Shown here piece after piece: positions 1-30,603 of a stretch of DNA of 64,000 bases; within the stretch, counting starts at the first letter, position 1; every line of letters starts with the position of its first letter. The notes below the pieces were generated by a model. It did no database searches. It was not told the DNA's origin and saw only the letters and a program-made list of their open reading frames with translations. Origin of the DNA: an uncultured Peptococcaceae bacterium (GTDB taxonomy: Bacteria > Bacillota > DSM-12270 > Thermacetogeniales > Thermacetogeniaceae); the NCBI GenBank assembly GCA_963768335.1, contig CAVYHR010000006.1, positions 1-64,000 on the forward strand, in the 5' to 3' direction. The translations under genes and the position numbers were made by a program.

Positions 1-843
1 GCGAACTGGCGGCCTATCACGTCGGGCGCAAGGTCAGGGTGGAGGCCCCGGACCTGGAGGCCTTCAAGCAGAGATTGAAGGGGCTGGCTCAACAGGGGCC
101 CGAGAGCGTGCCGGCAACCGCCCTGCCCATAGCCGAACCGGTGATCAACCGCGGCGAGGATGCCATCCTCGATATTCTGGTCAGGCGCCTGGAAAGGGAG
201 TTGCCCGGGAACAACTGCCTGCGCGTCGATATGGGCAGCATCAACGGACTGCTGGCCCTTTACTACGGCAAGGCAAACGTGGCCACGGCGCACCTCTGGG
301 ACGGCGATTCCGACGAGTACAACCGCCCTACATCCGGCGCATCCTCCCCGGCCAAAAAATGGTGACCATCAACCTGGTTTTCCGTACTCAGGGCTTTTAT
401 GTGGCGGAAGGAAATCCCCTGGGGATTGGCAGGTGGACCTGACCTGGCCAGACCGGACATCCGGTTCGTCAACCGGGAGCCCGGCTCCGGAACCAGGGTG
501 CTGCTTGACGAACAGTTACGCAAGCTGGGTATCGACCACCGTCAGGTGCCTGGCTACGATAATGTGGAAACGACTCACCTGGCGGTCGCCAGTTGTGTGG
601 CCAAGGGCGCCGCCGACGTCGGGCTGGGCACGGAGTCGGTGGCCGGCCAGGTAAAGGGGCTGGACTTCGTTCCCCGGGCAGAAAGAGCGCTACGACCTGG
701 TGATGCGCAAGGAAGACCTGGACAGGCCTTATGGAAAGGTTATTATAAACCTGCTCCGGTCGACATCCTTCCGCAACGAGGTAAGCGGCATGGGCAGGTA
801 TGACCTCTCACAGATGGGGAAATTGATCGCCGAAGTGTATTAG
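1..843 (+). pseudogene. 5'-truncated PBP-like (periplasmic-binding-protein-like, MoeA/ModE-associated) substrate-binding domain gene; reading frame broken about 3 times
   Basis: Protein-like sequence continues across track ORFs 39..365 (frame 0), a frame-2 stretch at about 362..440, 399..803 (frame 0) and a final frame-1 stretch ending at TAG 841-843. The conserved stretch is RPDIRFVNREPGSGTRVLLDEQLRKLGI...ETTHLAVASCVAKGAADVGLGTESVA...GLDFVP | LAKERYDLVMRKEDLDRPYGKVI. The first shift sits at an A6 run (354-359). The ORF is open from base 1. Confidence 0.45.
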
Positions 844-1079
844 GAATGCTCCCGGTACTTTTTCTTCCAGGCATCGAAGTCCCACCCCTGCAAGAAAACC
901 TTGCCCGCCTTCAATCCGTTGTCGAACAGGGCTATGCTCTGCTCGGGGGTGATGTCGAAATCCACCGTGCCGATTATTGTCTTCTGATTGCCAACCTGGA
1001 CTGTGGTCGGTATGCAGATAGACCGTTCATGGTCCCCGGACGAGACTGAAATATGGTAGTTGTCATTGCCGCTGATCAT
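840..1079 (-). CDS. C-terminal continuation of the patatin-like ORF after an in-frame TAG (79-aa ORF from first Met; 99 codons open from the TAG)
   Basis: Same frame as ORF 1137..1937 (1937 and 1079 are both 2 mod 3). The only stop between them is TAG at 1137-1139. Translation right after it is FDPDPIHNIADYLESLLGTMISGNDNYHISVSSGDHERSI..., which is protein-like. The stop TAA at 840-842 overlaps the convergent upstream gene. Confidence 0.4.
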   Translation of the reverse strand: MISGNDNYHISVSSGDHERSICIPTTVQVGNQKTIIGTVDFDITPEQSIALFDNGLKAGKVFLQGWDFDAWKKKYREHS

Positions 1080-1136
1080 CGTGCCTAACAGAGACTCCAG
1101 GTAGTCGGCGATGTTGTGGATCGGGTCGGGGTCGAA

Positions 1137-1845
1137 CTACGGCAAAGTCCTGCCCGTAGTATCGACGGGTTTGAAACCGAAGGTCGGCCAGGGCGGATCG
1201 CTGGTGCCGTCGTCCAGGAGCCAGATCGGGTAGTTGCTCAGCACTCCGCCGTCAACGATATAATGTAGTTTCCCCCGGCTATCGGTCAACCTGACCGGCT
1301 CGAAAAACACCGGGATGCTGATACTCATCCGGACAGCGGCGGCAATGCTGAATTGATCGGGATCATACCCAAAATTCTTGAGGTCTCCAGGCAGGACGAG
1401 GAGTCTTTTGTCGGTCATGTCGGAGGCGATGGCCTGGAACTTGTACGTGTACTTTTCCTGCGTGGGGTTAGCGAACTTGATGTCCCCGAAAGTTGTCTTT
1501 CCCTTGGCGTCGAGCAGGGCACCCAGCCAATTTTCAAAAAATGTCCCCTTGTAAATGCCGTACCTGAAAACGATGCTGGCGATCTTGCCGGGAACGCTAA
1601 ATCTGTCCAGCCAGTTCTCATCCTCAAAGTCCTTGTAGTTCAACTTCTGCAATGCCTGCTCGATCTCCCCGGCCGTATAGCCCACCGCCAGCAGCGAGGC
1701 CACGATCGCTCCCGCCGAAGTTCCCGCCAGGTTGACGAACTGGTAACCGGCCTCTTCAATGGCGGCCACGGCCCCAACCAGGCCGATGCCCTTCACCCCG
1801 CCGCCCTCAAAAACCGCATCGCAATTCAACGCCATTTTTTCGGCA
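1137..1845 (-). CDS. patatin-like phospholipase
   Basis: MALNCDAVFEGGGVKGIGLVGAV... (oxyanion GGGxKG), GTSAG nucleophile elbow and a distal DGG(V) Asp motif. RBS AAAGGAG sits 9 nt before ATG at 1845. The track ORF extends to 1937, but that N-terminus has no RBS. Confidence 0.85.
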
Positions 1846-2233
1846 CTCCTTTCCGGCCCGTTGCTAATTCCAACTTTGCTTCGCTTAGCTTGAAATATTT
1901 CTATTCCACACTTAGCATTAACATGCGGGGGATGCACGGAGTAGCGTTCCTTTCGGGACGGTTCACAAGAGATCGGAGGTCATGAAGTTCAGACCGGCGC
2001 CCGCCTGCAGCCTGGCGGCGACCTGCTCCCGCAGGGGCTGGGCCGGCTCCTGCCGGCCCAGGTTCTTGAAGGCTACCGCCAGCATCAGCTTGATGCGGTT
2101 CAACTGGTTGACCTCGCTGGCGCCGGCCAGTCGTTACAATTCATGCTGCCATCCTTCACCGCCGGTCCACCGGCCCCGGCAACCCCCGGGAAGTTCATGT
2201 GCCGGAACCGGCCGTGCCTGGCGCCCACATCGG

Positions 2234-4985
2234 TCATCCGGTCCTTGTCCGGCTTGCAGTTCCGGCCCAGACATGGCAGATCGGTTTGCCAAGCTTTTTC
2301 GCCAGATCGACTATCTCCCCGGTGCCGCCCCGTCCCTGGGCTTTCCTGCCGTCCCAGACCGCCACCATCACGTCGCTGTGCTCCACAATGTAGCGCCCGG
2401 ACCTCAGATAGGCCTCGCCCCGGGTCGGCGCGGGGGGCATGACGATGGTCTCGATGGCGCGCTCCGCCAGCCAGTAGCGAAACTCCTGCCTCAGCTCGGC
2501 CTCGTCGTAGTCCAGGCGGTGCTCGTCAGTGGGGCCAAAGTCTTTGATGTAGTCATCCAGAGGCACCGGCAGCACCACGATCAACCGGGCCGCCTCGTTC
2601 TTGAGCAGGGCACGGGCCACCAGCCGGTCGGCCCCGATAGCCAGGGGGGAGAAGACCGTCAGGTAGTGTTCCGGGAATTGGGACTCGATAAAGGTCACCG
2701 CTCTGGCGACTCCTGCCTCCAGTTCGGCCATCCGTTCCGGGTCGAGCCAGACATGGCCGGTGATACCCACCCTGAGCATCTCCCGGTGGCCCAGCCTGGT
2801 GAGGGCATCGAACTCCCCGGCATCGACGTGCATCTCTAAAATGTGGTCCGGGGGCAGACTGGACAGGGCGAAACTCCGCCTCTCATCAAGGTTGCTCATC
2901 CTGACCAGGGTCTCCATGGAGCGGGCCTCATAACGATAGCGGTTAACCTTCAGGAAGGCATCCAGCACCCCCCGGTCCACCTGAAACCGGTCGCCCTTCT
3001 TGATGTGCGGGGCTGATATCTCCAGGCAGCGGTTCAAGAGAAACGCCCGCCGGATGGGGAACATCCGGTCCTCGACAGTGTTGGGATGACCGTTCACGCC
3101 CTTCACGTCGATGTAGGCCCGCAGCCTGCTGATGAAATCGGGTTTTTTGGCAGCCGCCTTCTCCCCGCCGGAGCCGGCGCAGAACTCCTTGAAGGAGTGT
3201 CCGGTCGCCCCGGTGAAGACGTAGATGCCGCCGCCCAGCGGGTGCCCGCTGCCATGGTCGTTGAACTCGCCGTCCTGCATGGGCGCCAGAAAATCCGCAG
3301 CCAGCCCAGCGGGATGCCCTCGCAGGGTGCGTCGAACTCGTCCCAGAAGACCAGGGGCATCTTTCCCCTCAGGCGCCGGTCCCTGATCTGGTGGAAGGCC
3401 TGGGCGAGTTCCCGGGGCGATGTAAACTGGGAGAGGTTGAAGGTCAGTTGGGCGTTTTCGGCAATCCCCAGACCCCTGGCAATCTCCTTGACAACGAAGG
3501 ACTTGCCGGCCCCAGGGGGCCCGAACACCGCCACGCAGAGCGGTGTTTGCAGGCGCTGCTGCTTTAAATAGTCCGCCATAGCGTTGTAGACGCTGCGCAC
3601 GCCCTCGATCTCGCGCCGGTCGGCGCTGCGCCAGTTACCGACCATTTCCACGGGGACGTCGGGCAGGGCCACCCCGGGCCCCTCCTCCACGATCATCCGG
3701 GCGTACTCGAAAACCGCGTCCATGGTCCTGGAACCCCTGGCAACGCTTGCTTCCGTAATTTGCGCACCCGCCCGGCCCCTGTTCTCCTTGACCGCCTCTT
3801 CAAGGATGGACCACCCCGCCCGAGGCGGCGCCGCACCGGGTGCTCCCTGGGGGCGGCGCCCGCCTTCACTACGGGCCAGACCCCTGACATCCTGAAAAAT
3901 CCCCAGGTCCCATATTTTATCGGTCCTCTTGTCACCCGTTCCCTCGTGATAAGCCTTCACCAACCGCTGGCAGGGAAACTGGAGGCGCTGGCAGTCTCCT
4001 GCCGCCACCACCTCGCAACCATCCAGGTAAAGCAGCCGGGCCAGGGCGATACCGTCCCGGGTCGCCCTGGACCAGTCAACGCCCGGTGGCCAGTTGACCC
4101 AGGCCGCGGCCAGAGCCCCCAGCACACAGGTATTGGCACCCGGCGCCTGCCTCGTAAGATGCCGGGCAAAGTCGCCCTCCTGGCCGGAGCGGTCAAAGAT
4201 CAGAGTGTCATGTTCCTGCCCTACGATCACCGCCCCGCTCGCCCCGACGGTGACGATCACCTGATGGAAGAGCAGGTTGTTCTGATCGTCGACAAAGGGG
4301 CCCCTCGGGCTGCAGACGGCAGCGATTATGGCCTCAAACAGCCTCTCCCAGGAAAGGGAAACCCCGACCCGTTGCGGGCAGGCCCGCAGGTCTCCGATAG
4401 AGGTCAGGATGGTGGTCCTGGCCGCCAGGTCGATGGCATGAAGCCTGGCCAGCAAGGGGTGCTCCCGGTCGCCGCCAAACCGGGCGAGCTGGAGGATGAT
4501 CTGCTCCGGCTTTCTGCCGCACCGCGCCCGGCGGGCGCCCGCTTCGGGCGCGGACCCGGCACCGCCTCCTCCGCATCCGGGCTAAGCCCGGCCTGAATGT
4601 CCGCTCGAGGCTGGCGCCTCGGCTGAAAGCCCGCCGACACACCGGGAATGCGGAGCACAGGTGGGCGCGGCACCCGCCGCTCTCCTAAAACCTCCGGCCA
4701 CCCCTCCGTGACACTGCGAAATCCCAGGCCGCTGTCGGCGATCACCAGCAGGTCCGGCAGGCCGGCAGGCCGGCCCTCGACCTCAGCCAGCTCCGGCGGG
4801 ATCATCTCTTTTAAAAACTGCAGGATCAGCGCCGACCCACCGGCCCGGGACATCAGGCGCGCCACTGCTGCCGGACGATCGGGCAGCCGGGGGTGGCTTT
4901 CGCCTCTGCTGTAATGATCCTCGCCCTGGATGGTCAGCCAGTCGACGGTGGGGTCGCCGCATACCTGCACCAGAAGTTTCGCCAT
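2234..4985 (-). CDS. large multidomain NTPase: degenerate ribokinase/PfkB-like domain + AAA+ ATPase + C-terminal LOG/SLOG-like Rossmann domain; split over three frames in this assembly
   Basis: The three track ORFs 4404..4985, 3103..4455 and 2234..3280 are colinear and each continues the protein-like sequence of the previous one. PfkB-like motifs: AGGSALILQFL and APGANTCVLGALAAAW (GAGD degenerated to GANT). Walker A CVAVFGPPGAGKSF, Walker B LVFWDEFD, sensor-1-like IYVFTGAT. LOG-like: LTVFSPLAIGADRL...LIVVLPVP and GRGGTGEIVDLAKKLGKPI (PGGxGTxEE-like). The shift near 3290 looks like GGG->GG. The other break coincides with repeat copy A. Confidence 0.6.
4563..4668. repeat. P1-type palindromic repeat, copy A, inside the NTPase coding region
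   Basis: CCTCCTCCGCATCCGGGCT-AAGCCCGGCCTGAATG...GAAAGCCCGCCGACACACCGGGAATGCGGAGCACAG. The outer arms CTCCGCAT(C)CGGG / CCCGGGAATGCGGAG are reverse complements. The terminal 35 nt matches copy B. Confidence 0.6.
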
Positions 4986-5197
4986 GCCGCCCTCCTGCCT
5001 TACGATCTGCTATTAGGCAACGCTCAACTTATTATGTGAAATAATCTCATCTTTCAAAAGGAGGCGGCAGACCGGACCGGGGTTTAAACCATACTTATTG
5101 CCCGGGGATGAGTTTGAGAGGTAATAATCAAGAAAAATGGTATAATACTGTAGTGAATAACCAGATTATCGCCTTGCCATCACCAGGAGGAATGCTT

Positions 5198-6397
5198 ATG
5201 AGAAAAATGCTCAAGATCCTGCCGGTCCTTCTGCTTTCCCTGGCCGTGGCTGTCGGTTGCGCCAAACACGCCCCACCGCCGCCGCAACCTCCTCCGCCGG
5301 CCCAGCCCGCCAAAGCCGACCCGGCCAAGACCAGCGGCGCCACCAACGCCTCCCTGTTCTTCCTCAACAACCAACTGGGATGGGTTGCAGTCAACCTGGA
5401 GACACAGCAGCCCCCGGCCAGCGTCATCCTGCATACCGGTGACGGCGGGCAGAACTGGGTGCAGTTGAACTCCCCGGGTCTGTCGGTCGTCCAGCAACTG
5501 GCCTTCCCTGATGCCCAGCACGGCTGGGCGCTGGTGTCAGCCGACGCCGGCAACAGCCAGACAAGCTGCGCCATCATGGCCACGGCCGACGGAGGAAAGA
5601 CCTGGACACAGCAGTGGTCAGAGGTGATTCAACAGGGTGGATACCCGTACCGGATGCAGTTCCTGGACGCCAGCAACGGCTTCGCCCTGATCGGCAACAC
5701 CTTTGTGGTCACGCTGGACGGCGGCGCCCACTGGGTGCAGCGCACCATGGTACAGGGCATGAGCGGTTTCAGTTTCAGTGACCGCCTGGCGGGTTGGGCG
5801 GTTGGGGCCAACTCCATCTGGCACACCACCGACGGAGGAGTGACCTGGCTCAGGCAGTGGACGATACCGGACAATATTAAAAGCGAGTTCCCCGACAGTG
5901 GAGGCATCATCATCTTTGTCTCCCCCAACGCCGGCTGGGCGCTGTTCCAGGGGGAAGGGTCCATGTTCAAGTCCTCCAAGCTGGTGCTGCATACGGATGA
6001 CGGCAGTAACTGGTCGGCTGCCAGCGCCTACCTCCCTCCCATCAACCAGACCGGCCTCCCACCTAACACAGCGCCCCACTATACCGTGGCGCGCTTCGTA
6101 CCGGTGAACGCCACCACCGCCTTGCTGGCGGCATCGCCTCCCACCGACTACCCGGTGCTGTACCGCACCACCGACAATGGTAGTGACTGGGAGACGCTCA
6201 GCGATGGGATGAGCGGCGCCTCCGGCCTGCCCGAGGGCACCTGGGGAGACCTCAGCTTTGCGGGCGGCAGCGAGGGCTGGGCGGCGGTAATTACCCAACC
6301 TACGTCCAAGTCAAGCAGCGGCACTCCTACCGGCAGCAACGTGGCCCTGCTGCACACCCTGGACGGCGGCAAGACCTGGGCCACCCAGTTCCCGTAA
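5198..6397 (+). CDS. BNR/Asp-box (Ycf48-like) beta-propeller lipoprotein
   Basis: RBS AGGAGG before ATG at 5198. Signal peptide MRKMLKILPVLLLSLAVAVGC with a lipobox, followed by a Pro-rich linker. Seven SxDxGxTW-type repeats (TGDGGQNW, ADGGKTW, LDGGAHW, TDGGVTW, TDDGSNW, TDNGSDW, LDGGKTW). Confidence 0.8.
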   Translation: MRKMLKILPVLLLSLAVAVGCAKHAPPPPQPPPPAQPAKADPAKTSGATNASLFFLNNQLGWVAVNLETQQPPASVILHTGDGGQNWVQLNSPGLSVVQQLAFPDAQHGWALVSADAGNSQTSCAIMATADGGKTWTQQWSEVIQQGGYPYRMQFLDASNGFALIGNTFVVTLDGGAHWVQRTMVQGMSGFSFSDRLAGWAVGANSIWHTTDGGVTWLRQWTIPDNIKSEFPDSGGIIIFVSPNAGWALFQGEGSMFKSSKLVLHTDDGSNWSAASAYLPPINQTGLPPNTAPHYTVARFVPVNATTALLAASPPTDYPVLYRTTDNGSDWETLSDGMSGASGLPEGTWGDLSFAGGSEGWAAVITQPTSKSSSGTPTGSNVALLHTLDGGKTWATQFP

Positions 6398-6559
6398 AGA
6401 TTGTCATGGGCATAGAACCACTGGGATCGTGCCCGCCGGAACGCTTTACCTTGGGTGCGACTTACGGCGGGAAATACATAAACCGGCGTGAAACAGCAAG
6501 AAGCCGCAGGCTGCATAAACCTGCGGCTTTTGTTTGCCGTTCTCTGTTAACCGTGAGGT

Positions 6560-8554
6560 TTATTTAGTATCCGGCGCCTGCTGCTGCCCCGGCAGTTGCA
6601 GGTTGCCCTTCAGCAACTTGGCCAGCACAGCGTTCACCAGGGCGCCCTGACTGTTTTCTCCCCCGTTAATCATGATCTCGGGTGTGATCTTGATTTGCTT
6701 CTCCGAGATCAATTTCATCAACTCGATACTAACGAGTCCTTCCGCTGTTACTGCTTGCTTGGTCAGTTCGTATGCCTGCGCCGTGTTCTTGCCGATCGAC
6801 AGAATTTTATCAGCCTCACCCTGGCCTTCAAGCCTGATTTTCTCGGCCTCGCCCTGGGCAATGGCGATGGTCTTTTGCTTGATCTGTTCTGCAACCTGCA
6901 CATCAATCTGCGCTGCCACCAGGGTTGCCTGCTTGTCAGCCTCGGCCCTGGTTTTTTCCATGGCGATACGCTTTTGTTCCGAATTCCTCTGCTCATCGAA
7001 CATTGACTGCCGCTGCAGGGCGAGCACCTTGTTGGTCTGGGTCTCCATCAGCTCCGGCGGCAGAACAATATTACTGATGAGCACCGATAATACCTCGACA
7101 TGGTACTTGCTCAGTTCGTTGACGGCACGCTTCAGTGCCTGATCCTGCTGCTCGTGGCGATCCTGCAGGAATTGCATCGCTGAAGCCGTGGATGCCTGAT
7201 TGCGGAATGATGAGTCGATCAGCGGGTGAATGACGTTGGTGATCAGGTTTTCTATGCTGCCAATACGACTCACGAGATAGGGCGATTGATCGGGCAGCAC
7301 CCTGATGACCACTTTCACGCCTACCTTAAGCGCAAAACCATCCTTGCTGTTCACGTTCAGCGAGTCGAACTTGGTATCCGCGGCATCATCCCAATCAATG
7401 GTGGTATTAGTGGTATTAATGATGATCGGCCTGTATGCCAAGAGGTTCAAATAAAAATTTCCCGGTCCGAGCACTGAACGCTGTATGCCCCGGTATCCTT
7501 CCGTAACTACATATTTTTCTGCATTAAAGTCGTCCGCTGCATCATCGTTCGCTTTGGGCTCCCCGGAAGACAACGGTATTGCCGGTTGTTTGCCGACGTT
7601 GGAGATAATCACCGCCACCTGACCCTGGTTGACAGTTAACGCATCAGATGTTTGCACTGAAAACATCAGGGGGTTTACATAAAATTTGCCTGGGGTGAGG
7701 ACATCTAATTGTGGGCCGCGCTGCCCACCGTTCATGAGAAACGCTGCGGCATTCTGGAACATATCGTGACCTTGAATGGTCTTGGCGATTAGCTCGTTTT
7801 CCGGCAGTTCTTCTCCATCATTTGCGGTGACAATGCCAACTTTGCCGGACGGAACATCGATAGCTGGAGTGATTTTCACATCGAACATCCGGAGATTTAT
7901 TCTGTACCGGCCCGGTCTCAAGATATCTAGTTGTGGCCCCTTCTGTCCGCCCTGCTCGAGGAAAGCCTCTCCGTCCTGGTAGTTGCTATGGCCAGGAACT
8001 GATTTAGCGTAGAGTCGCCCCGGATCCAGCGGTTGGCCGGCTGCTGCGTTCACGATGCCAATCGAGCCCGCAGGGATCGTTATCGCATCCATAACTGTGA
8101 TCTTGAAGAGATAGCTGTTGACTCTGTAGAGACCTGGCGGCAGTGTTTCTGTCTGGATGCCTTTCTGTCCCCCGTTTTTCAAGAAAGCCTCAGCATCCTG
8201 AAAGTGGTTATGACCGGTTACGACCCTGCCGAATATATCTCCCGGATCGAGGGGCCTCCCGTCTATCGATTCGATTATTCCCACCTGGTTTTCCCCGATC
8301 GCCACCAGTTCATCGATGCGGACGTTGAACAGGAACGGAAAAAAGAGATGAAGGCCCGGCCCCAAGATTCTTGCCTGAATTCCGATCTGCCCGGGCAGTG
8401 CGACGACCCTATCCGAAGGAAGCCTTGCTCCGAAAAGTTTTTGTTCTACTATCCCCACCTGTCGGCCGCCGATAATGACGATCATCCGTGCACTTGCGAG
8501 CAGTAATATGACAACAATCGCCACAATTACATAAAGAATCGTATCCATTGCCAT
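6560..8554 (-). CDS. flotillin-like SPFH/band-7 membrane protein (YqiK family) with N-terminal repeats
   Basis: N-terminal TM helix. Four ~80-aa repeats (GIVEQKLFG..., GIIESIDGRPLDPG..., GIVNAAAGQPLDPG..., GIVTANDGEELPE...). Then an SPFH core and a long Ala/Glu/Gln-rich coiled coil (EQKRIAMEKTRAEADKQATLVAAQIDVQVAEQ...). Confidence 0.85.
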   Translation of the reverse strand: MAMDTILYVIVAIVVILLLASARMIVIIGGRQVGIVEQKLFGARLPSDRVVALPGQIGIQARILGPGLHLFFPFLFNVRIDELVAIGENQVGIIESIDGRPLDPGDIFGRVVTGHNHFQDAEAFLKNGGQKGIQTETLPPGLYRVNSYLFKITVMDAITIPAGSIGIVNAAAGQPLDPGRLYAKSVPGHSNYQDGEAFLEQGGQKGPQLDILRPGRYRINLRMFDVKITPAIDVPSGKVGIVTANDGEELPENELIAKTIQGHDMFQNAAAFLMNGGQRGPQLDVLTPGKFYVNPLMFSVQTSDALTVNQGQVAVIISNVGKQPAIPLSSGEPKANDDAADDFNAEKYVVTEGYRGIQRSVLGPGNFYLNLLAYRPIIINTTNTTIDWDDAADTKFDSLNVNSKDGFALKVGVKVVIRVLPDQSPYLVSRIGSIENLITNVIHPLIDSSFRNQASTASAMQFLQDRHEQQDQALKRAVNELSKYHVEVLSVLISNIVLPPELMETQTNKVLALQRQSMFDEQRNSEQKRIAMEKTRAEADKQATLVAAQIDVQVAEQIKQKTIAIAQGEAEKIRLEGQGEADKILSIGKNTAQAYELTKQAVTAEGLVSIELMKLISEKQIKITPEIMINGGENSQGALVNAVLAKLLKGNLQLPGQQQAPDTK

Positions 8555-8951
8555 TCGTTCCTCCTCTTCATGCTTGACTGTTTAAGCCGCATACTGATTC
8601 TGCTTGAATAACGCCTGGCGCTATTTTTGTTTTCCAACTTCCGATCCAAGATGCCGATCCGCTCGCCCCCGACGATCACCACCATATGCGAGTTCAGGGA
8701 TGACCAGGAGCACCAGCGCCAACTCTATCCAAGATCAGCCTCCCTTCAATTTTTCTCCTTGCTCCCCACCTATCATTATCATAATTAGGCCCTTTTGGCT
8801 ATGCGCCGCAGGCAAGAAATAAGCCGCCTATCCTACAGCAAAACGCCGGAAAGCGACATTTAACATGCGTGTAATTGATTACCTGTTATTTTGGTGGTCA
8901 GATGCCAGAAGGCGGATGTCAGCACATTTTTCTCCTGCTTTTGGACATCTT

Positions 8952-9095
8952 GCCTCCTCCGCATTCAGGCCTTCGGCCTGGCCTGAACGCCGGCTCAAGG
9001 CTCCGCCTTGGCTCCTGTGCTCCGCATTCTTCAGGCTGGGCTGAAAGCCCAGATGCGGAGGAAAGCCCGCCGGCACACCGGGAATGCGGAGTACA
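8952..9095. repeat. P1-type palindromic repeat, copy B (two hairpin units plus the shared terminal module)
   Basis: GCCTCCTCCGCATTCAGGCC..., then TGTGCTCCGCATTCTTCAGGCTGGGCTGAAAGCCCAGATGCGGAGG, then AAAGCCCGCCGGCACACCGGGAATGCGGAGTACAT. It lies right after the HK stop codon, in its 3' UTR. Confidence 0.6.
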
Positions 9096-9103
9096 TGACC
9101 TCT

Positions 9104-10438
9104 TTACAGGGCCGGAAGGTTGATCCTGAACGTGCTGCCATGTCCGGGAGCGCTGTCGACTTCGATCCAGCCGCCATGCGCCCTGATGATGCCATAAGCC
9201 ACCGGCAAGCCCAGCCCGGTGCCCTGGCCCGGCCGCTTGGTGGTGTAAAAAGGCTCGAAGATGCGGGACCGGTTGGCCTCGTCTATGCCGGCGCCGGTGT
9301 CGGACACCGAGAGGCAAACAAATCTGCCGGGAACAACGCCCGCCTGTCCGGGACGGCCCGCGGCCACGTTTTCAGTCTTGATGGTGAGGGCGCCGCCATT
9401 CGGCATGGCATCCCGGGCATTCAGCACCAGGTTGGCGATCGCCTGGTCGAGGGCGGCGGTATCGGCGTTCACCTTCCATAGGTGGGGGCATGTCTCCAGC
9501 CTGATGTCAATGTTCCCGCCCAGCCACGCCCGGTCCACTGACGCTTTTGCGGGCGCATCCCGGCGCGGGCGCGGCAGCATCTTACCAATCTCATCCACTC
9601 TCTGATTCAGGTCTGTGGGAACCTTGAAGAGGGGTAACCGGCAACTGAACAGCAGCATCTGCCTGGTAAGATTGGCGCAGATCAGGGCGCTGTTCCTGAT
9701 CCTCGATAATGCCCGGTGCAGGGGATTATCCATGGAAAGCCCGGGCAGAAAGAGGTCGGTGCAGGCGCAGATCACCGTCAACTGGTTGTTCAACTCGTGG
9801 GCCATGCCTCCGGCCAGGCGGCCCACCGCCTCCATCTTCCCTGCCTGCAACCACCCGGCCTGAGACTGGAGTTCGTCTTCTCCCTGCCCGGGCGGGTTGA
9901 GCCTCTCCTCCTCTTTCCTGTGTCCGGAGATGTCACGAAGCGCCACCAGCACCGCCGGCTCCCCCTGGCAGGCGATCGTCCTGGCCTCGATCTCCACCCG
10001 TATCTCCTGCCCGGTCTTGGAAATGATCTTGACGGAAAAGGTCGACACCGACACTGCTCCACGACGGAGCGCCTCATACCCCTCTTTGACGATCTCCCGA
10101 AAATCCGGGGCTATGAGCCTCCACAGATCCACTTTTTTGAGTTCCCTCGCCGTATACCCGGCGAAGTCATGGGAGCACGGGTTGACCGGGCGCAGGCGGC
10201 TTCCCTGGATAATATAAATAAAAGCTGGCGACACTTCCGCCAGCAGCCTGTAATCGAGTAAGTCTTTCCTGAGGCCGGCCTCCCGTTTCCGGTGTTCCAG
10301 AATCTCCCTTTCCAATGCCTGGTTGACAGTTACCAGTTCCTGCAGGTGTTCCCTCAACTGCTCGGGGGAGTACTCACTGCCGAAACCGGTTTCTTCATGC
10401 ACCTGCCGGGGCATTGCATCCGGGACTCGCTCATCCAC
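9104..10438 (-). CDS. cytoplasmic PAS-domain sensor histidine kinase (HisKA + HATPase_c), no adjacent response regulator
   Basis: H-box MAHELNNQLTVI. N-box LVLNARDAM. G-boxes DTGAGI and GQGTGLGL. PAS-like region upstream. No TM segment. Confidence 0.85.
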   Translation of the reverse strand: MDERVPDAMPRQVHEETGFGSEYSPEQLREHLQELVTVNQALEREILEHRKREAGLRKDLLDYRLLAEVSPAFIYIIQGSRLRPVNPCSHDFAGYTARELKKVDLWRLIAPDFREIVKEGYEALRRGAVSVSTFSVKIISKTGQEIRVEIEARTIACQGEPAVLVALRDISGHRKEEERLNPPGQGEDELQSQAGWLQAGKMEAVGRLAGGMAHELNNQLTVICACTDLFLPGLSMDNPLHRALSRIRNSALICANLTRQMLLFSCRLPLFKVPTDLNQRVDEIGKMLPRPRRDAPAKASVDRAWLGGNIDIRLETCPHLWKVNADTAALDQAIANLVLNARDAMPNGGALTIKTENVAAGRPGQAGVVPGRFVCLSVSDTGAGIDEANRSRIFEPFYTTKRPGQGTGLGLPVAYGIIRAHGGWIEVDSAPGHGSTFRINLPAL

Positions 10439-10840
10439 CCTGTAAAGTCTCGATGGGCGTCTGTACGGAATAAATCCCCATTTCTCGACCTCCTTGCCGG
10501 AAATAATCGAGCCGTACCAACTATGCGTTTGTCTATTAGGCTATTTCGCCATAATAGGAAAAACTCCTGCATGTTTTCCTGATAAATTCTATATTCTCAC
10601 ATTCTTACATTTCAATTATAGCAGCCGTACATCTGTTTGTCAAATACCCTTTTCACCTTCCGGCGACTGTCCGTTCATTCTCCGGCCAAGCCGATGGATT
10701 TCCTGGGCAATACAATTGCCTATCAAAAAGATATTTCATATAATTGAACGAGTGGATTGAGGTGATCAAACTCTTTCCTGTCAGATACGCGCAACCGCGC
10801 CCAGGGGACGCCCGCCTGGGAGAGAAACGGAGGGAGAACA

Positions 10841-12472
10841 TTGTCCAAGCTGACTTTCTTGGGGGGAGCCGGCACTGTTACCGGTTCCTGTTTTCTGCTG
10901 GAGACCGGGAAGCTGAAGCTGCTTGTGGACTGCGGCATGTTCCAGGGCAACCGGGAGTTGCGCACGCGCAACTACCGCAACCTGGAGGTCCCGGTCCAAT
11001 CTATCGACTACATCCTGCTGACCCACGCCCACATCGACCACTCGGGGTTGATCCCCCGCCTGTTCAAGCAGGGCTTCCGTGGCAAGGTGCTGGCCACCAA
11101 AGCCACTATCGACCTCTGCGGGATCATGCTGCCAGACAGCGGCCACATCCAGGAGGTGGAGGCGGAGTGGGAGACCCGGAAAGCCAGGCGCCGCGGCGAA
11201 AAACACCTGGACCCGCTCTACACTGCCCAGGATGCCGAGAACTGCCTGCAATCCTTTACCGGAGTCTCCTACGGCCAGGAGGTGGCCCTGGATGATCAGG
11301 TGCGGGTGCGCTACCTGGATGCGGGGCACATCCTCGGCTCCGCCATCATCGAGGTCTGGATCAGGGAGGACGGCCAGGAGATCAAGACCGTCTTCAGCGG
11401 CGACTTGGGCAACAAGGGCACACCCATTGTCAGGGACCCCGCCTGGGTGGCGGAGGCGGACTACCTGCTGCTGGAATCCACCTACGGAGACCGCTTCCAC
11501 GAACCGGTGGCCAACGAGGCCCGGCGGCTTCAGGAGATCATCCTGGACACCGTCAAGCGAGGGGGCAACGTGATCATCCCCTCTTTCGCCGTCGGCCGCA
11601 CCCAGGAGATCCTCTTCTTCCTCGGAGGCATGTTCAAACACGGCGACCTGCCGCCGGTCCCGGTCTACATCGACAGCCCGCTGGCCGTCTCGGCCACGGA
11701 GATCTTTACCCGCAACCCGGACTGCTACGATGACGAGGTCAGGGCCAGCCTGAGCAGCGGCGACCCCTTCCACTTCCCCAACCTGACCTTCGTGCGTGAT
11801 GTCAAGGATTCCATCGCCCTCAACAACAATGAACGCCAGCGCAAGGTGATCATCTCCGCCAGCGGGATGTGCGACGCCGGCCGGATCAAGCACCACCTCA
11901 AGCACAACCTCTGGCGCCAGGATGCGTCGGTGGTCTTCGTCGGCTTCCAGGCCGAAGGAACCCTCGGCCGCCGGATCCTGGACGGCGAGAAAAAGGTCCG
12001 CGTCCTGGGGGAGCCAATCAATGTGGCGGCCAGGATCTATTCCCTGCAGGGCTTCTCCGCTCACGCCGATCAGAACGGGCTCCTGGACTGGGTCTCGCAC
12101 CTGGCCGGCAAACCCGGGCGCCTGTTCATCGTCCACGGTGAGGCGGCAGCCTCCGGCGCTCTCAGCAACCTGGTGGAACAGCGTTTCGGCATCTCCACGG
12201 TGGTGCCACGGGCCGGCGAGCAGTACCTGCTCACTCCCCGCGGCCTGGAACTGGCCAAGGCGCCCCTGCCCAGCGTGCATCCGGCCGGCCTGGACGCCAG
12301 GCAGCAGTTGCTGCTGGAGATCTTCCGGCTGGAGAAAGCGCTGGTTGAGGCCAAGGAAGACCTGCTACTGATGGAAAATGGGGATCCTGAAGCTGACATC
12401 TTGAAGAAGATGGTGCCGGAGCTGGGCGAGAAGATCGACGCCCTGCTGCAGGCCATCCCGAAAAGGGGATAA
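10841..12472 (+). CDS. MBL-fold metallo-hydrolase, beta-CASP family (RNase J/CPSF-like)
   Basis: TTG start with RBS GGAGGGAG. FLGGAGTVTGSC, LLTHAHIDHSG (HxHxDH), downstream D/H motifs. C-terminal ~100-aa coiled-coil extension. Confidence 0.8.
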   Translation: MSKLTFLGGAGTVTGSCFLLETGKLKLLVDCGMFQGNRELRTRNYRNLEVPVQSIDYILLTHAHIDHSGLIPRLFKQGFRGKVLATKATIDLCGIMLPDSGHIQEVEAEWETRKARRRGEKHLDPLYTAQDAENCLQSFTGVSYGQEVALDDQVRVRYLDAGHILGSAIIEVWIREDGQEIKTVFSGDLGNKGTPIVRDPAWVAEADYLLLESTYGDRFHEPVANEARRLQEIILDTVKRGGNVIIPSFAVGRTQEILFFLGGMFKHGDLPPVPVYIDSPLAVSATEIFTRNPDCYDDEVRASLSSGDPFHFPNLTFVRDVKDSIALNNNERQRKVIISASGMCDAGRIKHHLKHNLWRQDASVVFVGFQAEGTLGRRILDGEKKVRVLGEPINVAARIYSLQGFSAHADQNGLLDWVSHLAGKPGRLFIVHGEAAASGALSNLVEQRFGISTVVPRAGEQYLLTPRGLELAKAPLPSVHPAGLDARQQLLLEIFRLEKALVEAKEDLLLMENGDPEADILKKMVPELGEKIDALLQAIPKRG

Positions 12473-12655
12473 GTTTAAGAGATTTCCCACGATGAGTAAC
12501 CCCCTTCGGCAGCCTCTTCAGCGGCAGTCTCGCCCACTTCTGGGGGGCGCCGGCCACCATCGCCACCGGGGCGGCTATCGGCCTGCTGTCCCTGATCACC
12601 ATGATCATCCGGGAACGCCGGCAGTGGTCGCCAAAGCCCGGCGACAGCCCGCGTT

Positions 12656-14164
12656 CTACCTCTGGGAGATCCACTCCCGGCAGGCGGCGGCAAATCGGGC
12701 GGCAGCCCGGGGGTTGGCGGCGAAATGGAAGTGAAAGTAGGAGGCCAGCAGGCTGCCGTCGGCATAGCCGTCGTTGCCGGTGCGACCGTCCCCCTTGCGG
12801 AAGGTGAACGCCCAAGGGAAGGGTTCCCTGGATGGAATGAACGAGGAGTAGTGAAACTCGTGGCCGCGCAGCGCATCCCCCTTCTGGCAGAGGATATTCC
12901 GGCCCTTGGCCTCGGCGGTGACGTAGCCCATGCCCACCAGGCGCCCGGCCATGCGGCAGCGGCCCGGCGCCAGGCCGACCATCGGGTGGTCGCGGCCGTC
13001 CAGGTCGCCGAGCGATTCGCAGAGGTACATGAAGCCCCCACACTCGGCGTAGATCGGCAGACCGGCAGCGTGTGCCCGGCGCAGGCTGTCCTTCATGCCC
13101 TCATTCCCGGCCAGTTCCCGGGCGAACACCTCGGGAAACCCGCCGCCGATCAGGACACCGGCGACGCCATCGGGAAGCGAGCGATCCTGCAGCGGACTGA
13201 AGGATACCAGTTCGATGCCGTGCCAGGATAACAGATCCAGCCCGTCCCGGTAATAGAAGTTGAAGGCAGCGTCCCAGGCCAGGGCCACCTTCACCAGGCG
13301 CTCACTCCCCACCGCAAACGCTACTGATGCGCCGGGCTGCTGGTTTTTATGACCGGTTCCCGCCGCTGTACTGGTACGGCGGCTGACCATCCGTTTGCTA
13401 GACAGCAAACGCTGGCGCCCGCGGTAGGCCCGAAAGATTGACGGCGCCGACTCTGCCACCGCCAGGATCGCTTCCAGGTCCACCTGCCGGACGACCTCCT
13501 GCGACAACTCCCTGAGCAGTGGGTCGGACTCCCGTTGCTCCGGCACCGGCACCAGCCCCAGGTGCCTTTCCGTCAGACGGGGCAGGCTCCCGTCCCGGAC
13601 CGCTCCCAGGACCGGTATCCCCGCCTCACAGAAACCCGCCTGCAGCATCTCCAGATGCCGTTCCCCGGTGTAGCGGTTGAGGATCACCCCGGCCAGCCGC
13701 AGGTCCGGGTCAAAGCTGCGGCAGCCCAAAAACTCCACCACGGCGCTGCGGGCCTGGCTGCGCACGTCCAGTACCAGCACCACCGGGCAGCCCAGGAGCT
13801 TGGCCACCTGGGCGCTGCTTGCCTGCTCTCCCTGGCCGCGCAGGCCGTCGAACAGGCCCATCACACCCTCGATCACTGCAATATCGGCGTCAGCCGCAGC
13901 CCTGCAGAAATATGACCGCACCTGGCCGCAGGAAAGCATCCAGGTATCCAGGTTGCGCGACCAGCGCCCCGTGACCGCGGTGTGGAAACTGGGATCGATA
14001 AAGTCCGGCCCCACCTTGAAGCCCTGCACCCGGCAACCCCGGCTGGCCAGCGCCCCCATCAGGCCGGTGGCGATACTGGTCTTGCCGGAACTGCTCCGGA
14101 CCGCGGCGATCATCACCCGCGGCGCCCGGCTCCCTCTAACGGTATTTCCAGCATCATCGCTCAT
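12656..14164 (-). CDS. cbiA: cobyrinate a,c-diamide synthase
   Basis: VMIAAVRSSSGKTSIATGLMGAL... P-loop N-domain. C-terminal GATase region (ECGGFMYL). Confidence 0.85.
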   Translation of the reverse strand: MSDDAGNTVRGSRAPRVMIAAVRSSSGKTSIATGLMGALASRGCRVQGFKVGPDFIDPSFHTAVTGRWSRNLDTWMLSCGQVRSYFCRAAADADIAVIEGVMGLFDGLRGQGEQASSAQVAKLLGCPVVLVLDVRSQARSAVVEFLGCRSFDPDLRLAGVILNRYTGERHLEMLQAGFCEAGIPVLGAVRDGSLPRLTERHLGLVPVPEQRESDPLLRELSQEVVRQVDLEAILAVAESAPSIFRAYRGRQRLLSSKRMVSRRTSTAAGTGHKNQQPGASVAFAVGSERLVKVALAWDAAFNFYYRDGLDLLSWHGIELVSFSPLQDRSLPDGVAGVLIGGGFPEVFARELAGNEGMKDSLRRAHAAGLPIYAECGGFMYLCESLGDLDGRDHPMVGLAPGRCRMAGRLVGMGYVTAEAKGRNILCQKGDALRGHEFHYSSFIPSREPFPWAFTFRKGDGRTGNDGYADGSLLASYFHFHFAANPRAAARFAAACREWISQR

Positions 14165-15710
14165 CCTTGTTCCCCCACGGCCCGGTCAGCCCCAACAGGC
14201 CGTAAATCGCCTTCATGTCCAGGCGGGCACGGCTTTCCGCCGCCAGCCGGTCCAGTTCCTGGTCCAGCAACGCCTGGCTGGGCAGGCCCTGGCCGGCCAG
14301 TTCGTCCAACCCCCGCCGCTGACGCAGCCAGCCCAGCAGCCCGGCCCGGAAGCGGTCGTTGTCGAAGATACCGTGGAAGTAGGTGCCCCAGACCAGACCC
14401 GTGGGCGCCACCGCCCCGTCGTGGCCGGAGGCCGGCTGGCCGCTCCGGCGGGTCACCTCCAGGAAGGGTTTGGCCTCCGTTCCGAGCACGGTGCGCCCCA
14501 TGTGGATCTCGTACCCGGCAACCTCCTGCCCGGCAGACTGCCCAAGCAGCGGGCCGACGGCGCAGAGCCGCCCCTCCGCCTGGGCCAGCACCTTATCGGC
14601 GGCAAAGGTGGTCGCCACGTCCAGCAGCCCCAGCCCCGGCAGTTCATCCCGGGTGGACTCGGTATGCTCCGGATCGTGCAGGTCCCGGCCAAGCATCTGG
14701 TAGCCGCCGCACAGCCCGCAGACCGGCACCCCCCGGGCAGCAGACTGCCTGATGGCGGCAGCGTGGCCGGTCTCATAGAGGTAGAGCAGGTCCTCGGTGG
14801 TGTTCTTCGTTCCCGGGATGATGATCAGGTCCGGATCCCCCAACCGGTCTCCCTCCCTGACGTAGCGAACGCGGACGCCGGGCTCCAGGGCCAGGGGGTC
14901 GAAGTCGGTGAAATTGGAGATGCGGGGCAGGTAGACGACGGCGATCTCGATCTCCGCCGGCCCCGTCCGGGCGGCATCCTCCAGGCAGACCGAGTCCTCC
15001 GCCGGGAGGTTGAGGTTCAGGTAGGGCAGCACCCCCAGCACCGGCTTCCCGGTCCTCCGCTCCAGAAAGTCCAGGGCCGGCTCCAGCAGCGAGATATCCC
15101 CCCGGAACTTGTTGATGATGATCCCCCGCACCAGTTGCTCCTCCTCCGGCTCCAGCAGGGCCAGGGTGCCCACCACCGCGGCCAGGGCGCCGCCCCGGTC
15201 GATGTCCGTCGCCAGCAGCACCGGCGCCTCGGCCATCCTGGCGATGCGCATGTTGGCGATGTCCCGGTCCTTGAGATTGACCTCGGCCGGGCTGCCGGCG
15301 CCCTCGATGACGATGATCTCGTACTCCCGGTGCAGCTTCGCCAGGGTCTCCCCGATGATCCGCAGCAGGTCCATGTTCTTGCCCAGGTGATAGTCCCGGG
15401 CGGACATGTTCCCCACCGGCTTGCCCAGCACGATCACCTGGGAGGCGGCGTTCCCGGTCGGCTTCAACAGCACCGGGTTCATCTCCACCTGTGGCGCCAG
15501 GCCGCAGGCCTGGGCCTGGAGCACCTGGGCGCGCCCCATCTCCCCGCCGCCGGCGGTGACGAAGGAGTTGAGGGCCATGTTCTGGGACTTGAAGGGCGCC
15601 ACCCGATAGCCATCCTGCCGGAAGATCCGGCAGAGGGCGGTGACGATGATGCTCTTGCCCACATTGGAGCCGGTCCCCTGCACCATGATCGCTCTAGCCA
15701 TGCTGTTCAC
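14154..15710 (-). CDS. cobQ: cobyric acid synthase
   Basis: IMVQGTGSNVGKSIIVTAL... and a C-terminal GATase domain. Overlaps the cbiA start by 11 nt. Confidence 0.9.
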   Translation of the reverse strand: MNSMARAIMVQGTGSNVGKSIIVTALCRIFRQDGYRVAPFKSQNMALNSFVTAGGGEMGRAQVLQAQACGLAPQVEMNPVLLKPTGNAASQVIVLGKPVGNMSARDYHLGKNMDLLRIIGETLAKLHREYEIIVIEGAGSPAEVNLKDRDIANMRIARMAEAPVLLATDIDRGGALAAVVGTLALLEPEEEQLVRGIIINKFRGDISLLEPALDFLERRTGKPVLGVLPYLNLNLPAEDSVCLEDAARTGPAEIEIAVVYLPRISNFTDFDPLALEPGVRVRYVREGDRLGDPDLIIIPGTKNTTEDLLYLYETGHAAAIRQSAARGVPVCGLCGGYQMLGRDLHDPEHTESTRDELPGLGLLDVATTFAADKVLAQAEGRLCAVGPLLGQSAGQEVAGYEIHMGRTVLGTEAKPFLEVTRRSGQPASGHDGAVAPTGLVWGTYFHGIFDNDRFRAGLLGWLRQRRGLDELAGQGLPSQALLDQELDRLAAESRARLDMKAIYGLLGLTGPWGNKDER

Positions 15711-16961: not shown

Positions 16962-17882
16962 TCAGAGCTTCAGGCTTCTGAGATCAGGCAGACTGGCCGC
17001 CCAGTCCAGGACATCCTCCTGACACCGGGCAACCCGGACCGGCCCCCCTTCGGGAAGCAGATCCCGCTCCCCGCCGTCCCAGGCGCCCTCAGGGCGCGGG
17101 CGCCCCACCACCACCACCGGGATGTTCAGGTTCAGGGCGGCCCGCACCTTCTCCGTCGTACCCCCCTCGTCTCCGCTCTCCTTGACCACGAAGGCTTCAG
17201 CGCCGCAGGCCTCCAGCAGGGCCTCGTTGAGCCTTACCGTGCCCGGCCCCTGGAAGGCGACGATCTGCCCCGGACTCAGGCCGAGACGGCGGCAGGCATC
17301 CAGGGATTCGGATACGGGCAGCACCCGTACCGTGAACCGGCAGCCGGCCAGGGCGGGGTGATTGATGATGGCGCTCAGCGGCTTCACCCCCACCGCCAGG
17401 AAGACCTGCCTGGCGCCCAGGGCCGCCAACTGTTCGGCCGCCTCCGGCCAGCCGGATACTACATGCACCAGCGGGCTGTCAGGCAAAGCTGCCGGCGGAC
17501 GTTCCCAGCGCAGGCAGGGAATGCCGCAGTTCAGGGCCGCCTCCCGGGCCAGGCGGGACACCTCCACCGCGAAGGGATGGGTGGCGTCCAGCAGGCCCTG
17601 CACCTGCCCAGATCGCAGCAACTCCTCCAGGGCCGCCCGGTCCAGCCGCCCCTCCCGCACCGCCAGGCCCGGGGCTGCGGTGCGCAGCACCTCGGCGCCG
17701 TAAGGCGTGGCTGCGCTGGCCAGCACCTGCCAGCCGGCTGCCGCCAGGACCGCCGCCAGGTCCCTGCCGTCCCGGGTTCCCGCCAACACCAGAATCATCG
17801 TCGTACGTCGGACTTCGGACGTCGGAATTTGCATGTCTTTTTGAATGCCTTCCTTATTGGGTGTTGGTTTTTTTCCAACCAC
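16962..17882 (-). CDS. cbiJ: cobalt-precorrin-6A reductase
   Basis: MILVLAGTRDGRDLA... The true start is probably the internal Met near 17798. Confidence 0.8.
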   Translation of the reverse strand: MVGKKPTPNKEGIQKDMQIPTSEVRRTTMILVLAGTRDGRDLAAVLAAAGWQVLASAATPYGAEVLRTAAPGLAVREGRLDRAALEELLRSGQVQGLLDATHPFAVEVSRLAREAALNCGIPCLRWERPPAALPDSPLVHVVSGWPEAAEQLAALGARQVFLAVGVKPLSAIINHPALAGCRFTVRVLPVSESLDACRRLGLSPGQIVAFQGPGTVRLNEALLEACGAEAFVVKESGDEGGTTEKVRAALNLNIPVVVVGRPRPEGAWDGGERDLLPEGGPVRVARCQEDVLDWAASLPDLRSLKL

Positions 17883-17956
17883 TAAAACTCACCACCATCT
17901 AGTCATGAGCTTTTAGTAGTTTGGCCTTAACCTCGAGAGGGCCAATTACTCATCAC

Positions 17957-19887: not shown

Positions 19888-19932
19888 GCCGCCCCGTCCT
19901 CACCATCATCAAACCTGCCGCCATCTCGGCGC

Positions 19933-20724: not shown

Positions 20725-20797
20725 CCCTTTCCTGTGTTCGCTGGTATTATGTCAACTACGCTCCGAGATCCCGCAATTCCGCGCCCGTATGCAGGCA

Positions 20798-21586: not shown

Positions 21587-21640
21587 GCCTTTCCAGATAT
21601 TCCTTCTATTGCCGGCCGCTGCCGGGATGACGCAACCTGT

Positions 21641-27026: not shown

Positions 27027-27226
27027 TTACTCTTCCTCCTCTATATCTCTCCTATCGAATGAGTTTGGCGCCACTGATAACGACAAGCTTCTCAACCTTG
27101 AAAACAGACGCAACTGTGTCTCCAGGAAAAAACTAACCCCAGCCATGAAGGCTGAGGTTCGTAAACACGTGCTTACTGAATCCCACCCCCTATCGTTCGT
27201 AGGGTAACACGGCGCGACTGGAACAG

Positions 27227-27385: not shown

Positions 27386-27651
27386 TACTGGCGCGCGGCC
27401 GGGTGACACTGACAGCAACGCGGCGTGGAGCCTGAATCGCTGGGCTTCGGACTTCCCTTTTCAGCCCGTATTTAACGGGCCACCTGTTCCCCTTACGATG
27501 AAATTATCAAAGAACTTTTTTCAGTCCCCTTTTGCACAGAGACTACCACAGTCTGACAACGCCAACAACCACTGCCAATCCATAAAGGATTCGCCGTCAA
27601 GTTACATTCTCCTTCATGAAAAACAAAAACCGATCTTTTTTTTCTCATTCC

Positions 27652-30597: not shown

Positions 30598-30603
30598 ACT
30601 TCC

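Follow-up and report, generated by a model that had tools for sequence, protein, structure and literature searches.

A PfkB-like/AAA+/SLOG protein of an uncultured Peptococcaceae bacterium, its probably incidental patatin neighbour and its possibly TIR-linked family

Two genes lie close together near the left end of a 64,000-nucleotide stretch of DNA from an uncultured Peptococcaceae bacterium (GenBank assembly GCA_963768335.1, contig CAVYHR010000006.1, positions 1 to 64,000; hereafter the window). One encodes a patatin-like phospholipase and the other, on the same strand, a protein of some 940 residues in which a PfkB-like (ribokinase-like) domain, an AAA+ ATPase and a SLOG domain follow one another. 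Do the two genes form a sensor-plus-lipase module, as a sequence-only reading had proposed by analogy with the cyclic oligonucleotide-based antiphage signalling system (CBASS), and has the locus been inactivated in this strain? The evidence presented below leads us to hold, with considerable confidence, that the large protein has the three-domain anatomy and that the patatin gene is an incidental neighbour. For the overall explanation, which blends this anatomy with a proposed mechanism, our confidence is only a little better than even, and the mechanistic part, a ligand-gated device of conflict type, is put forward tentatively, at somewhat less than even.

The recent history of the interval is visible in a comparison with the closest intact relative (contig L002, 75% identity), where the ATPase gene is followed by a 1441-aa BcrAD_BadFG/DUF2229 gene, a 115-nt gap and then the patatin gene. 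In a DNA alignment the window lacks positions 12884–17206 of L002 (4.3 kb), with the junction at ~2126–2137, and window positions 2126–1963 align with the last 163 nt of the BcrAD/DUF2229 gene. The current adjacency of the ATPase and patatin genes thus stems from a recent 4.3-kb deletion that removed the BcrAD/DUF2229 gene. The small frame of ~50 codons between them, previously suspected of being a coupled open reading frame (ORF) or a shifted C-terminal tail, is a relic of the same gene, since its 46 codons (1963–2103, minus strand) translate to the C-terminus of the BcrAD/DUF2229 protein. The two genes had also been described as directly adjoining; they are indeed co-oriented but do not abut, the patatin gene lying ~320 nt downstream. 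In the next relatives the arrangement differs again: L003 (66% identity) has the BcrAD gene and no patatin, and L004 and L052 (63%), which have the same BNR and Band_7 genes upstream as the window, contain neither BcrAD nor patatin. The BcrAD/DUF2229 gene was itself considered as a partner of the ATPase and rejected, being present only in L002 and L003.

Patatin neighbours were sought by phmmer and motif in 79 loci from species-representative genomes and in 80 independent metagenome loci, and a further one was found in a single genome locus (L009) and in none of the metagenome loci. In L009, from an uncultured Syntrophomonas metagenome-assembled genome (MAG), the ATPase gene is followed after 16 nt, on the same strand, by a patatin-like gene (3109–4386, plus strand), which matches Pfam with E = 8e-30 and belongs to a subfamily different from that of the window's patatin. 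By a rough estimate from typical patatin frequencies, juxtaposition in two lineages of ~160 is not distinguishable from chance. The window gene matches Pfam Patatin (PF01734) with E = 2.9e-31 (109.6 bits against a cut-off of 27.7) and contains the motifs GGGVKG, GTSAG and DGG. Its raw ORF (1937–1137) ends at a TAG, beyond which the frame continues to position 840; the stop is CAG in contig L001, which is 98.2% identical to window positions 1–14368 at the DNA level, and the gene is intact in both L001 and L002. A promoter and terminator scan of positions 700–5200 gave no usable sign on co-transcription of the two genes. With an intervening gene in L002, no patatin in L003, L004 and L052, and one patatin in 159 other loci, the proposal that the lipase serves as the effector of a two-gene module does not hold, and the patatin is most likely an ordinary independent lipase gene, functionally unrelated to the ATPase.

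On the raw minus strand of the window the large gene is spread over three overlapping ORFs in different frames (4985–4404, 4455–3103 and 3280–2234), so that the sequence-only reading was right to call the locus interrupted, and every motif it had listed is present on that strand. One continuous ORF results once five bases are restored after positions 4545, 3295, 2264, 2176 and 2160, as in L001. The protein P0001 (European Nucleotide Archive contig; encoded on L001) is 99% identical to the window protein, and the corrected window protein is 76% identical to the intact homologue P0003; a protein search with the stitched query returned P0002, P0003 and P0004 as intact relatives at 75%, 70% and 66% identity. 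Across the locus the window and L001 differ by 10 substitutions and seven single-base gaps. At two of these gaps (4501 and 4491) a third assembly, P0007, sides with the window and reads straight through, and they look like errors in L001; the frameshift of P0007 is a separate one, further downstream. Because the three near-identical assemblies are broken at differing sites, each break being repaired in another of them, the frameshifts of the large gene are probably for the most part assembly (consensus) errors. Contig names and the indel pattern suggest long-read assemblies. Neighbouring genes behave in the same way: L001 splits the Band_7 and CbiA genes, both intact in the window, and an HTH_17/PBP-like regulator convergent on the patatin gene (39–843, plus strand) has a frameshift near 365–399 in the window and is unbroken, at 309 aa, in L001 and L002, another sign that the window assembly contains indel errors. 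The ratio of nonsynonymous to synonymous substitution rates (dN/dS) between the corrected gene and L002 is 0.39 in the PfkB part, 0.22 in the AAA+ part and 0.17 in the SLOG part, at dS ~0.45, which indicates that the gene has been under constraint for most of its divergence from L002. Given the differing indels and this purifying selection, inactivation of the locus by frameshifts, as had been suspected, is unlikely.

The identity of the outer domains could not be read from sequence profiles. Scans of the raw ORF fragments with Pfam, NCBIfam and PADLOC returned weak P-loop matches only and nothing for the N- and C-terminal domains, which were equally unmatched in a scan of 38 full-length homologues; Pfam PF00294 (PfkB) had no match in the window fragments or in these 38 homologues even at E ≤ 1, and PDB sequence-profile searches with alignments of the two domains gave nothing meaningful. 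Both folds were resolved by fold comparison alone. In the structural model the N-terminal domain has a ribokinase-like alpha/beta fold with a lid beta-sheet, and its nearest structural relatives are the ribokinases (PfkB carbohydrate and nucleoside kinases), from which it differs in the missing PF00294 match, in the replacement of the GAGD aspartate by T, A or S, in an extra FDxxGQEGDF loop and in its fusion to an AAA+ module. Residue conservation was counted over 113 full-length homologues, in which CGDPTVDW and GG are invariant and the GAGD-equivalent motif reads G286-[Y/D]-[N/H]-[T/A/S] (GANT in the window), with aspartate at the last position in none. A PfkB-like domain that has lost its catalytic aspartate, as first suggested for the window protein, is thus found throughout these homologues, and the idea of a ligand-binding pseudokinase gains support, with the equivalence to GAGD being positional and not drawn from a significant alignment.

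The central module passes the Pfam AAA cut-off in the window fragment (27.9 bits against 21.2), and weak PDB profile matches place it nearest the classical AAA clade; the full-length homologues also give weak Pfam matches to nSTAND_NTPase5 and bpMoxR, below the cut-offs. The earlier assignment as an AAA+ ATPase stands, with GPPG[AS]GKS, FWDEFD, sensor-1 T592, R618 and R686 invariant or nearly so in the 113 homologues and the window motifs intact; R618 and R686 may take the arginine-finger and sensor-2 roles. Classical AAA proteins carry a pore-loop motif in the region that here reads SQFESP, a sequence that hints at a switch rather than an unfoldase.

The C-terminal domain has a SLOG Rossmannoid fold of YpsA type. 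LOG phosphoribohydrolases carry the catalytic motif PGGxGTxxE, which is not kept in this domain: the consensus is GxGGTxxIV with no conserved glutamate, and many members read SSVTAQIV. The SLOG-like character first noticed in the sequence is borne out by the fold and by a GxD signature (G61 invariant and D63 in at least 90% of a 25-sequence alignment of the domain), GxD/E being the signature of the site at which proteins of the YpsA clade are predicted to bind nucleotides (PMC6459960). [quoted passage not shown] With ~180 aa, YpsA is a protein in its own right and has been connected with oxidative stress and the inhibition of cell division (PMC6459960), whereas the domain considered here is the C-terminal module of a 940-aa ATPase, is 13% identical to YpsA and has no Pfam match. 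Ligand binding and ATPase activity are predicted for the members of the family.

How large is this family, and what do its members share? The stitched-query search returned more than 1,739 relatives, mostly of ~930 aa and unbroken, and when 1.84 billion cluster representatives were scanned in full with HMMER, 2,197 passed E ≤ 1e-30 and 6,199 passed E ≤ 1e-10; the family size of ~2,200 used below counts clusters at 50% identity. The conserved unit is the PfkB-like plus AAA+ core. When the C-terminal tails were classed in 147 diverse representatives, by local clustering and Pfam on the cluster representatives, 64 carried RyR repeats (Pfam RyR E down to 5e-24), ~55 ended after the AAA+ lid and ~20 had a fused SLOG domain, with a TIR tail and an ACT-like tail in one each. 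In Thermoleophilia and some Chloroflexi SLOG is encoded separately, by the gene that directly follows the core, and this alternation between fused and separate adjacent forms suggests that core and SLOG work together; some family proteins contain a tandem pair of SLOG domains. Across phyla the family is distributed patchily, Firmicute and Acidobacterial proteins being ~50% identical and one MAG holding two paralogues (L004 and L005), and no relatives turned up among 2.9 million viral contigs that were scanned. As to individual RyR forms, the repeats were seen at the C-terminus of the core protein in Chloroflexi (L073, L072 and L079), and in a Thermoleophilia locus (L082, 12661–14445) a TrkA_N-RyR protein is encoded just downstream of the core gene.

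When the neighbours were clustered, no partner gene proved to be shared by the whole family; the largest cluster of neighbours, generic ABC ATPases, occurs in 13 of 82 loci. A TIR-domain or DUF4062/NACHT STAND gene is found within 8 kb in 19 of the 28 non-Firmicute genome loci. Pfam identifies these neighbours as TIR-NACHT-TPR, TIR-WD40 and DUF4062-NACHT proteins, and neighbourhoods rich in TIR-NACHT-TPR and DUF4062-NACHT-WD40 proteins occur in Acidobacteria, Chloroflexi and Thermoleophilia. The pattern is replicated in the metagenome loci (TIR in 33/80, STAND in 15/80); overall, 46 of 159 loci have TIR-domain genes nearby, with none in the sampled Firmicute genomes. Divided by architecture, these 159 loci include 34 of core-RyR type (a TIR ORF in 19, directly flanking on the same strand in 12), 15 of core-RyR type with a separate SLOG gene (7 and 3, respectively) and 83 of the core-SLOG type to which the window belongs (13 and 8). 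The same-strand TIR neighbours are 4–250 nt away in some family loci, and in the core-SLOG loci L093, L094, L095, L097 and L100 small TIR proteins flank the gene at 22–242 nt. Judged from typical TIR gene densities rather than from a per-genome background, the frequency of TIR neighbours appears to be far above chance. The general flavour of a conflict system that had been attributed to the locus is therefore recovered at the level of the family, in the TIR and STAND genes of the non-Firmicute and metagenome loci.

A different kind of neighbour was seen in two Acidobacterial loci (L028, 6701–7651; L068, 12831–14219), where genes of the inositol-monophosphatase (IMPase) family lie ~110 nt downstream of core-SLOG on the same strand; a third homologue of this cluster, in L056, is several kb off and on the opposite strand. 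The IMPase-family proteins could be a further partner, with a sugar phosphate or nucleotide phosphate as substrate.

None of the families in PADLOC-DB v2.0.0 matched three full-length homologues or the split and RyR forms at E ≤ 0.01, and PADLOC on the window fragments gave only faint P-loop matches. Burroughs et al. are said to have defined the SLOG clades in 2015, and the family could have been described in that SLOG-context classification; otherwise, with no paper found, it is apparently undescribed, in keeping with the first impression that the architecture belongs to no described system. The text of a 2025 survey of TIR-associated effectors names no ATPase, kinase or PfkB effector. Functionally, the family comes closest to type I Thoeris (ThsB TIR plus ThsA SIR2-SLOG). 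Both join a nucleotide-sensor domain to an output module, many non-Firmicute family loci have a YpsA-like-group SLOG protein beside TIR genes, and one TIR neighbour also matches the ThsB_TIR model; YpsA-like-group SLOG domains include sensors of TIR-made cyclic ADP-ribose isomers (PMC9503650). However, the family protein has no SIR2 or known killing domain, its SLOG domain being joined instead to a PfkB-like pseudokinase and an AAA+ module; many of the TIR domains sit in STAND, TPR or WD40 proteins and not in small ThsB-like ones; the PADLOC Thoeris models do not match the family; and the 64-kb window contains no TIR or STAND ORF. The window locus thus cannot be counted as a Thoeris system. 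The family SLOG domain was also compared with that of ShosA of ShosTA (DprA-like SLOG, PDB 8zva), with a sequence score far below significance; the family differs from ShosTA in its architecture and in having no phosphoribosyltransferase partner (ShosT). The STAND/AAA+ NTP-dependent conflict systems known from multicellular-type bacteria (Kaur et al. 2020, PMC7159879) resemble the family in their TIR/DUF4062-NACHT-rich neighbourhoods and differ in that the nSTAND_NTPase5 and bpMoxR matches stay below the Pfam cut-offs and the family ATPase lies closer to the classical AAA clade; no ribokinase-like domain is mentioned in the paper's text.

These results lead us to propose that the two genes of the interval have unrelated functions and owe their proximity to a recent deletion, and that the large protein may be an AAA+ switch, complete in itself and gated by ligand. 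Its PfkB-like pocket and SLOG domain would be binding sites for small molecules that contain ribose and probably derive from NAD or nucleotides, and the occupancy of these sites would govern the ATP-dependent assembly or remodelling carried out by the AAA+ ring. The switch would act within a conflict or immune-type pathway; the window copy stands alone, with neither a TIR partner in its 64 kb nor a dedicated effector gene. A more specific version is conceivable, though we consider it rather doubtful: the PfkB-AAA+ core with SLOG, RyR or TIR at or beside its C-terminus would be an undescribed, widespread TIR-linked immune family, a new Thoeris-like branch in which an NAD-derived signal containing ribose is read by the dead pocket, the SLOG domain or both, and the output comes from the AAA+ ring. 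The Firmicute form, as seen standing alone in the window, would then sense infection directly or respond to a signal produced at another place in the genome. Within the family the window copy is atypical, stand-alone and possibly weakened.

Several observations weigh against the ligand-gated switch of conflict type. The large protein has no recognisable killing or toxic domain. All 51 Firmicute genome loci are free of TIR and STAND neighbours, so that the conflict role is extrapolated from other phyla, and the Firmicute neighbours are of mixed or housekeeping character (for example, asparaginyl-tRNA synthetase and CCA-adding enzyme). The acidic loop FDxxGQEGDF of the PfkB-like domain is family-specific, invariant in the 113 homologues and could in principle supply catalysis. 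The mapping of GxNT to GAGD was made from the position of the helix N-terminus in the model and the local order of motifs, and hhalign found no alignment between the N-domain profile and an E. coli ribokinase sequence. The two independent patatin juxtapositions, in the window lineage and in L009, are slightly, but not significantly, above the chance expectation. Lastly, the large gene has five single-base deletions in 2.8 kb compared with ~0.7 per kb in the flanks, and given this higher density some of the frameshifts could be real.

It is possible to see in the same protein a housekeeping or metabolic enzyme or regulator concerned with nucleosides, sugar phosphates or NAD, in which catalysis resides in the PfkB-like and/or SLOG domain, possibly relying on non-canonical residues, and the AAA+ part serves as a regulated chaperone or activase. 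The neighbourhoods in Firmicutes, the clade of the window itself, where the gene is usually monocistronic, fit such a role, as do the invariant acidic loop, the IMPase-family genes directly downstream in L028 and L068, the lack of relatives in the viral contigs and of PADLOC matches, and a profile weakly like Rubisco activase and Vps4-type AAA proteins. We nevertheless consider it unlikely in view of the patchy spread over phyla with ~50% Firmicute–Acidobacterial identity, neighbourhoods that vary even within Syntrophomonadaceae, the paralogues, the recurrent same-strand TIR and STAND neighbours and TIR fusions, the absence of the canonical kinase base in 113 of 113 homologues and the unconserved LOG catalytic motif.

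A second alternative, compatible with either of these views of the family, concerns the window lineage only, where the gene could be a decaying pseudogene in a dispensable, eroding region. A 61-codon deletion and an insertion of ~51 codons in the PfkB-like domain set the window, L001 and P0007 apart from L002 and P0003. In the structural model the deleted segment corresponds to the lid beta-hairpin (strands 88–97 and 106–116), and with it go the family-invariant residues P82, T92, W94, R108 and E116. The insertion lies in a loop of low model confidence and consists of palindromes with the stem CTCCGCATCC...GAATGCGGAG and an inner stem CCGGGCT/AGCCCGG. Its modules of 33–40 nt recur elsewhere in the window at 9056–9095, 30656–30683 and 57737–57785, which confirms the repeat insertion noticed earlier inside the large gene. 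Both changes are real features of the window lineage, and the PfkB-like domain there may be weakened or without function. The loss of invariant residues and the repeat within the coding region, present in three assemblies, would suit a pseudogene, as would the dense single-base deletions, the deletion of a neighbouring 4.3-kb gene, the TAG in the patatin and a dN/dS in the PfkB part of 0.39 compared with 0.25 in the intact pair. However, the three assemblies are broken at differing sites with each break repaired in another, indels affect the neighbouring genes as well, the deletion and the insertion both preserve the reading frame, and dN/dS in the AAA+ and SLOG parts is 0.17–0.22. We therefore regard decay of the gene as improbable.

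The least tenable alternative is a CBASS-like abortive-infection module, after the CBASS with a patatin (CapV-type) effector, in which the NTPase would sense a nucleotide signal and activate the downstream patatin; it draws on the co-orientation of the two genes, a patatin-like lipase near a protein with nucleotide-binding-type domains, a weak match of the patatin to PADLOC phospholipase effector models (E = 1e-12) and the close pair in L009, but it is close to refuted and very improbable in view of the deletion origin of the adjacency, the scarcity of patatin neighbours in relatives and across the surveyed loci, an NCBIfam CBASS_lipase score of 32.8 bits against a cut-off of 200, the absence of a cyclase (CD-NTase) among the genes called within ±10 kb in the near-identical contig L001 and the stop codon in the window patatin, so that the analogy fails on every defining feature tested.

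Table 1. Features of the large gene and of the patatin interval in the window
Feature	Position	Strand	Remark
PfkB-like / AAA+ / SLOG gene	2156..4985	(-)	944 codons after restoring five missing bases
PfkB/ribokinase-fold domain without canonical kinase catalytic Asp	3943..4985	(-)	
CGDPTVDW motif, large gene	4961-4938	(-)	PfkB-like domain
In-frame 61-codon (183-nt) deletion relative to L002/P0003	4766..4769	(-)	PfkB lid beta-hairpin site
In-frame insertion of ~51 codons, surface loop	4519..4679	(-)	Nested GC-rich palindromic repeat modules
GANT motif (GAGD equivalent), large gene	4140-4129	(-)	PfkB-like domain
AAA+ ATPase module including lid	2804..3720	(-)	Pfam AAA, weak PDB profile matches, invariant catalytic residues
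GPPGAGKS, Walker A, large gene	3522-3499	(-)	
LVFWDEFD, Walker B, large gene	3354-3331	(-)	
YpsA-type SLOG domain	2159..2797	(-)	
GADRLVAR (GxD signature), SLOG domain of large gene	2635-2612	(-)	
GRGGTGEIVDLAKKLGKPI, i.e. GRGGTGEIV..., SLOG domain of large gene	2335-2279	(-)	
Relic, last ~54 codons of deleted 1441-aa BcrAD_BadFG/DUF2229 gene	1963..2126	(-)	
Patatin-like phospholipase gene, 331 codons	840..1835	(-)	In-frame TAG 1139-1137

The coordinates of the locus are collected in Table 1. The divergent upstream neighbour of the large gene (5108–6397, plus strand) encodes a secreted or membrane-anchored BNR/Ycf48-like beta-propeller protein and is conserved beside the ATPase gene in L001–L004 and L052; in the metagenome locus L134 the SLOG gene is followed at once by a fusion of a TIR domain to a BNR/Sortilin-type propeller, perhaps by coincidence. 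Past the left end of the window, L001 carries toxin-antitoxin-type genes (MazE/PIN, HTH_3/Gp49 and HicB) and a baeRF-family gene at 17587–22304, a cluster that points to a variable, mobile-type region at the borders of the locus. L001 is 98–99% identical to the window outside positions 13001–14368, where, in the CbiA/GATase_3 region, identity to L001 6–1400 collapses (121 mismatches and ~80 indel columns in 1.4 kb); the segment may vary between strains or be misassembled.

The GC-rich nested palindromes with the same outer stem as in the insertion are dispersed over the window, at 4565–4659, 9056–9095, 30602–30781, 44353–44488 and 57737–57785. One copy is in frame inside the ATPase gene, and the ~180-nt version is represented by 30602–30781 and 44353–44488, which are 93–100% identical. 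Another repeat, at 41649–42095, consists of two direct copies of a 201-nt unit, 88% identical and 246 nt apart. Two riboswitches were also found: an M-box (Mg) riboswitch at 38158–38326 on the plus strand (142.8 bits) and a cobalamin riboswitch at 27209–27502 on the minus strand (83.5 bits), the latter fitting the CbiA, CbiC and CbiX genes of the syntenic contigs.

For the window itself, the lesson is that what seemed to be a sensor-plus-lipase module is, very probably, an accident of deletion, and that what seemed to be pseudogenisation is probably for the most part an artefact of assembly. If the proposed role of the family is correct, its ~2,200 clusters, found in at least six phyla in the sampled genomes, would constitute a defence-type family missing from the catalogues, in which a kinase-dead sugar-kinase fold would serve as a small-molecule sensor and the output would be an AAA+ ring in place of a nuclease, lipase, NADase or pore. 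The exchange of SLOG, RyR and TIR at one position would then provide the first functional handle on bacterial RyR domains, and the set of proteins wired to TIR signalling would be wider.

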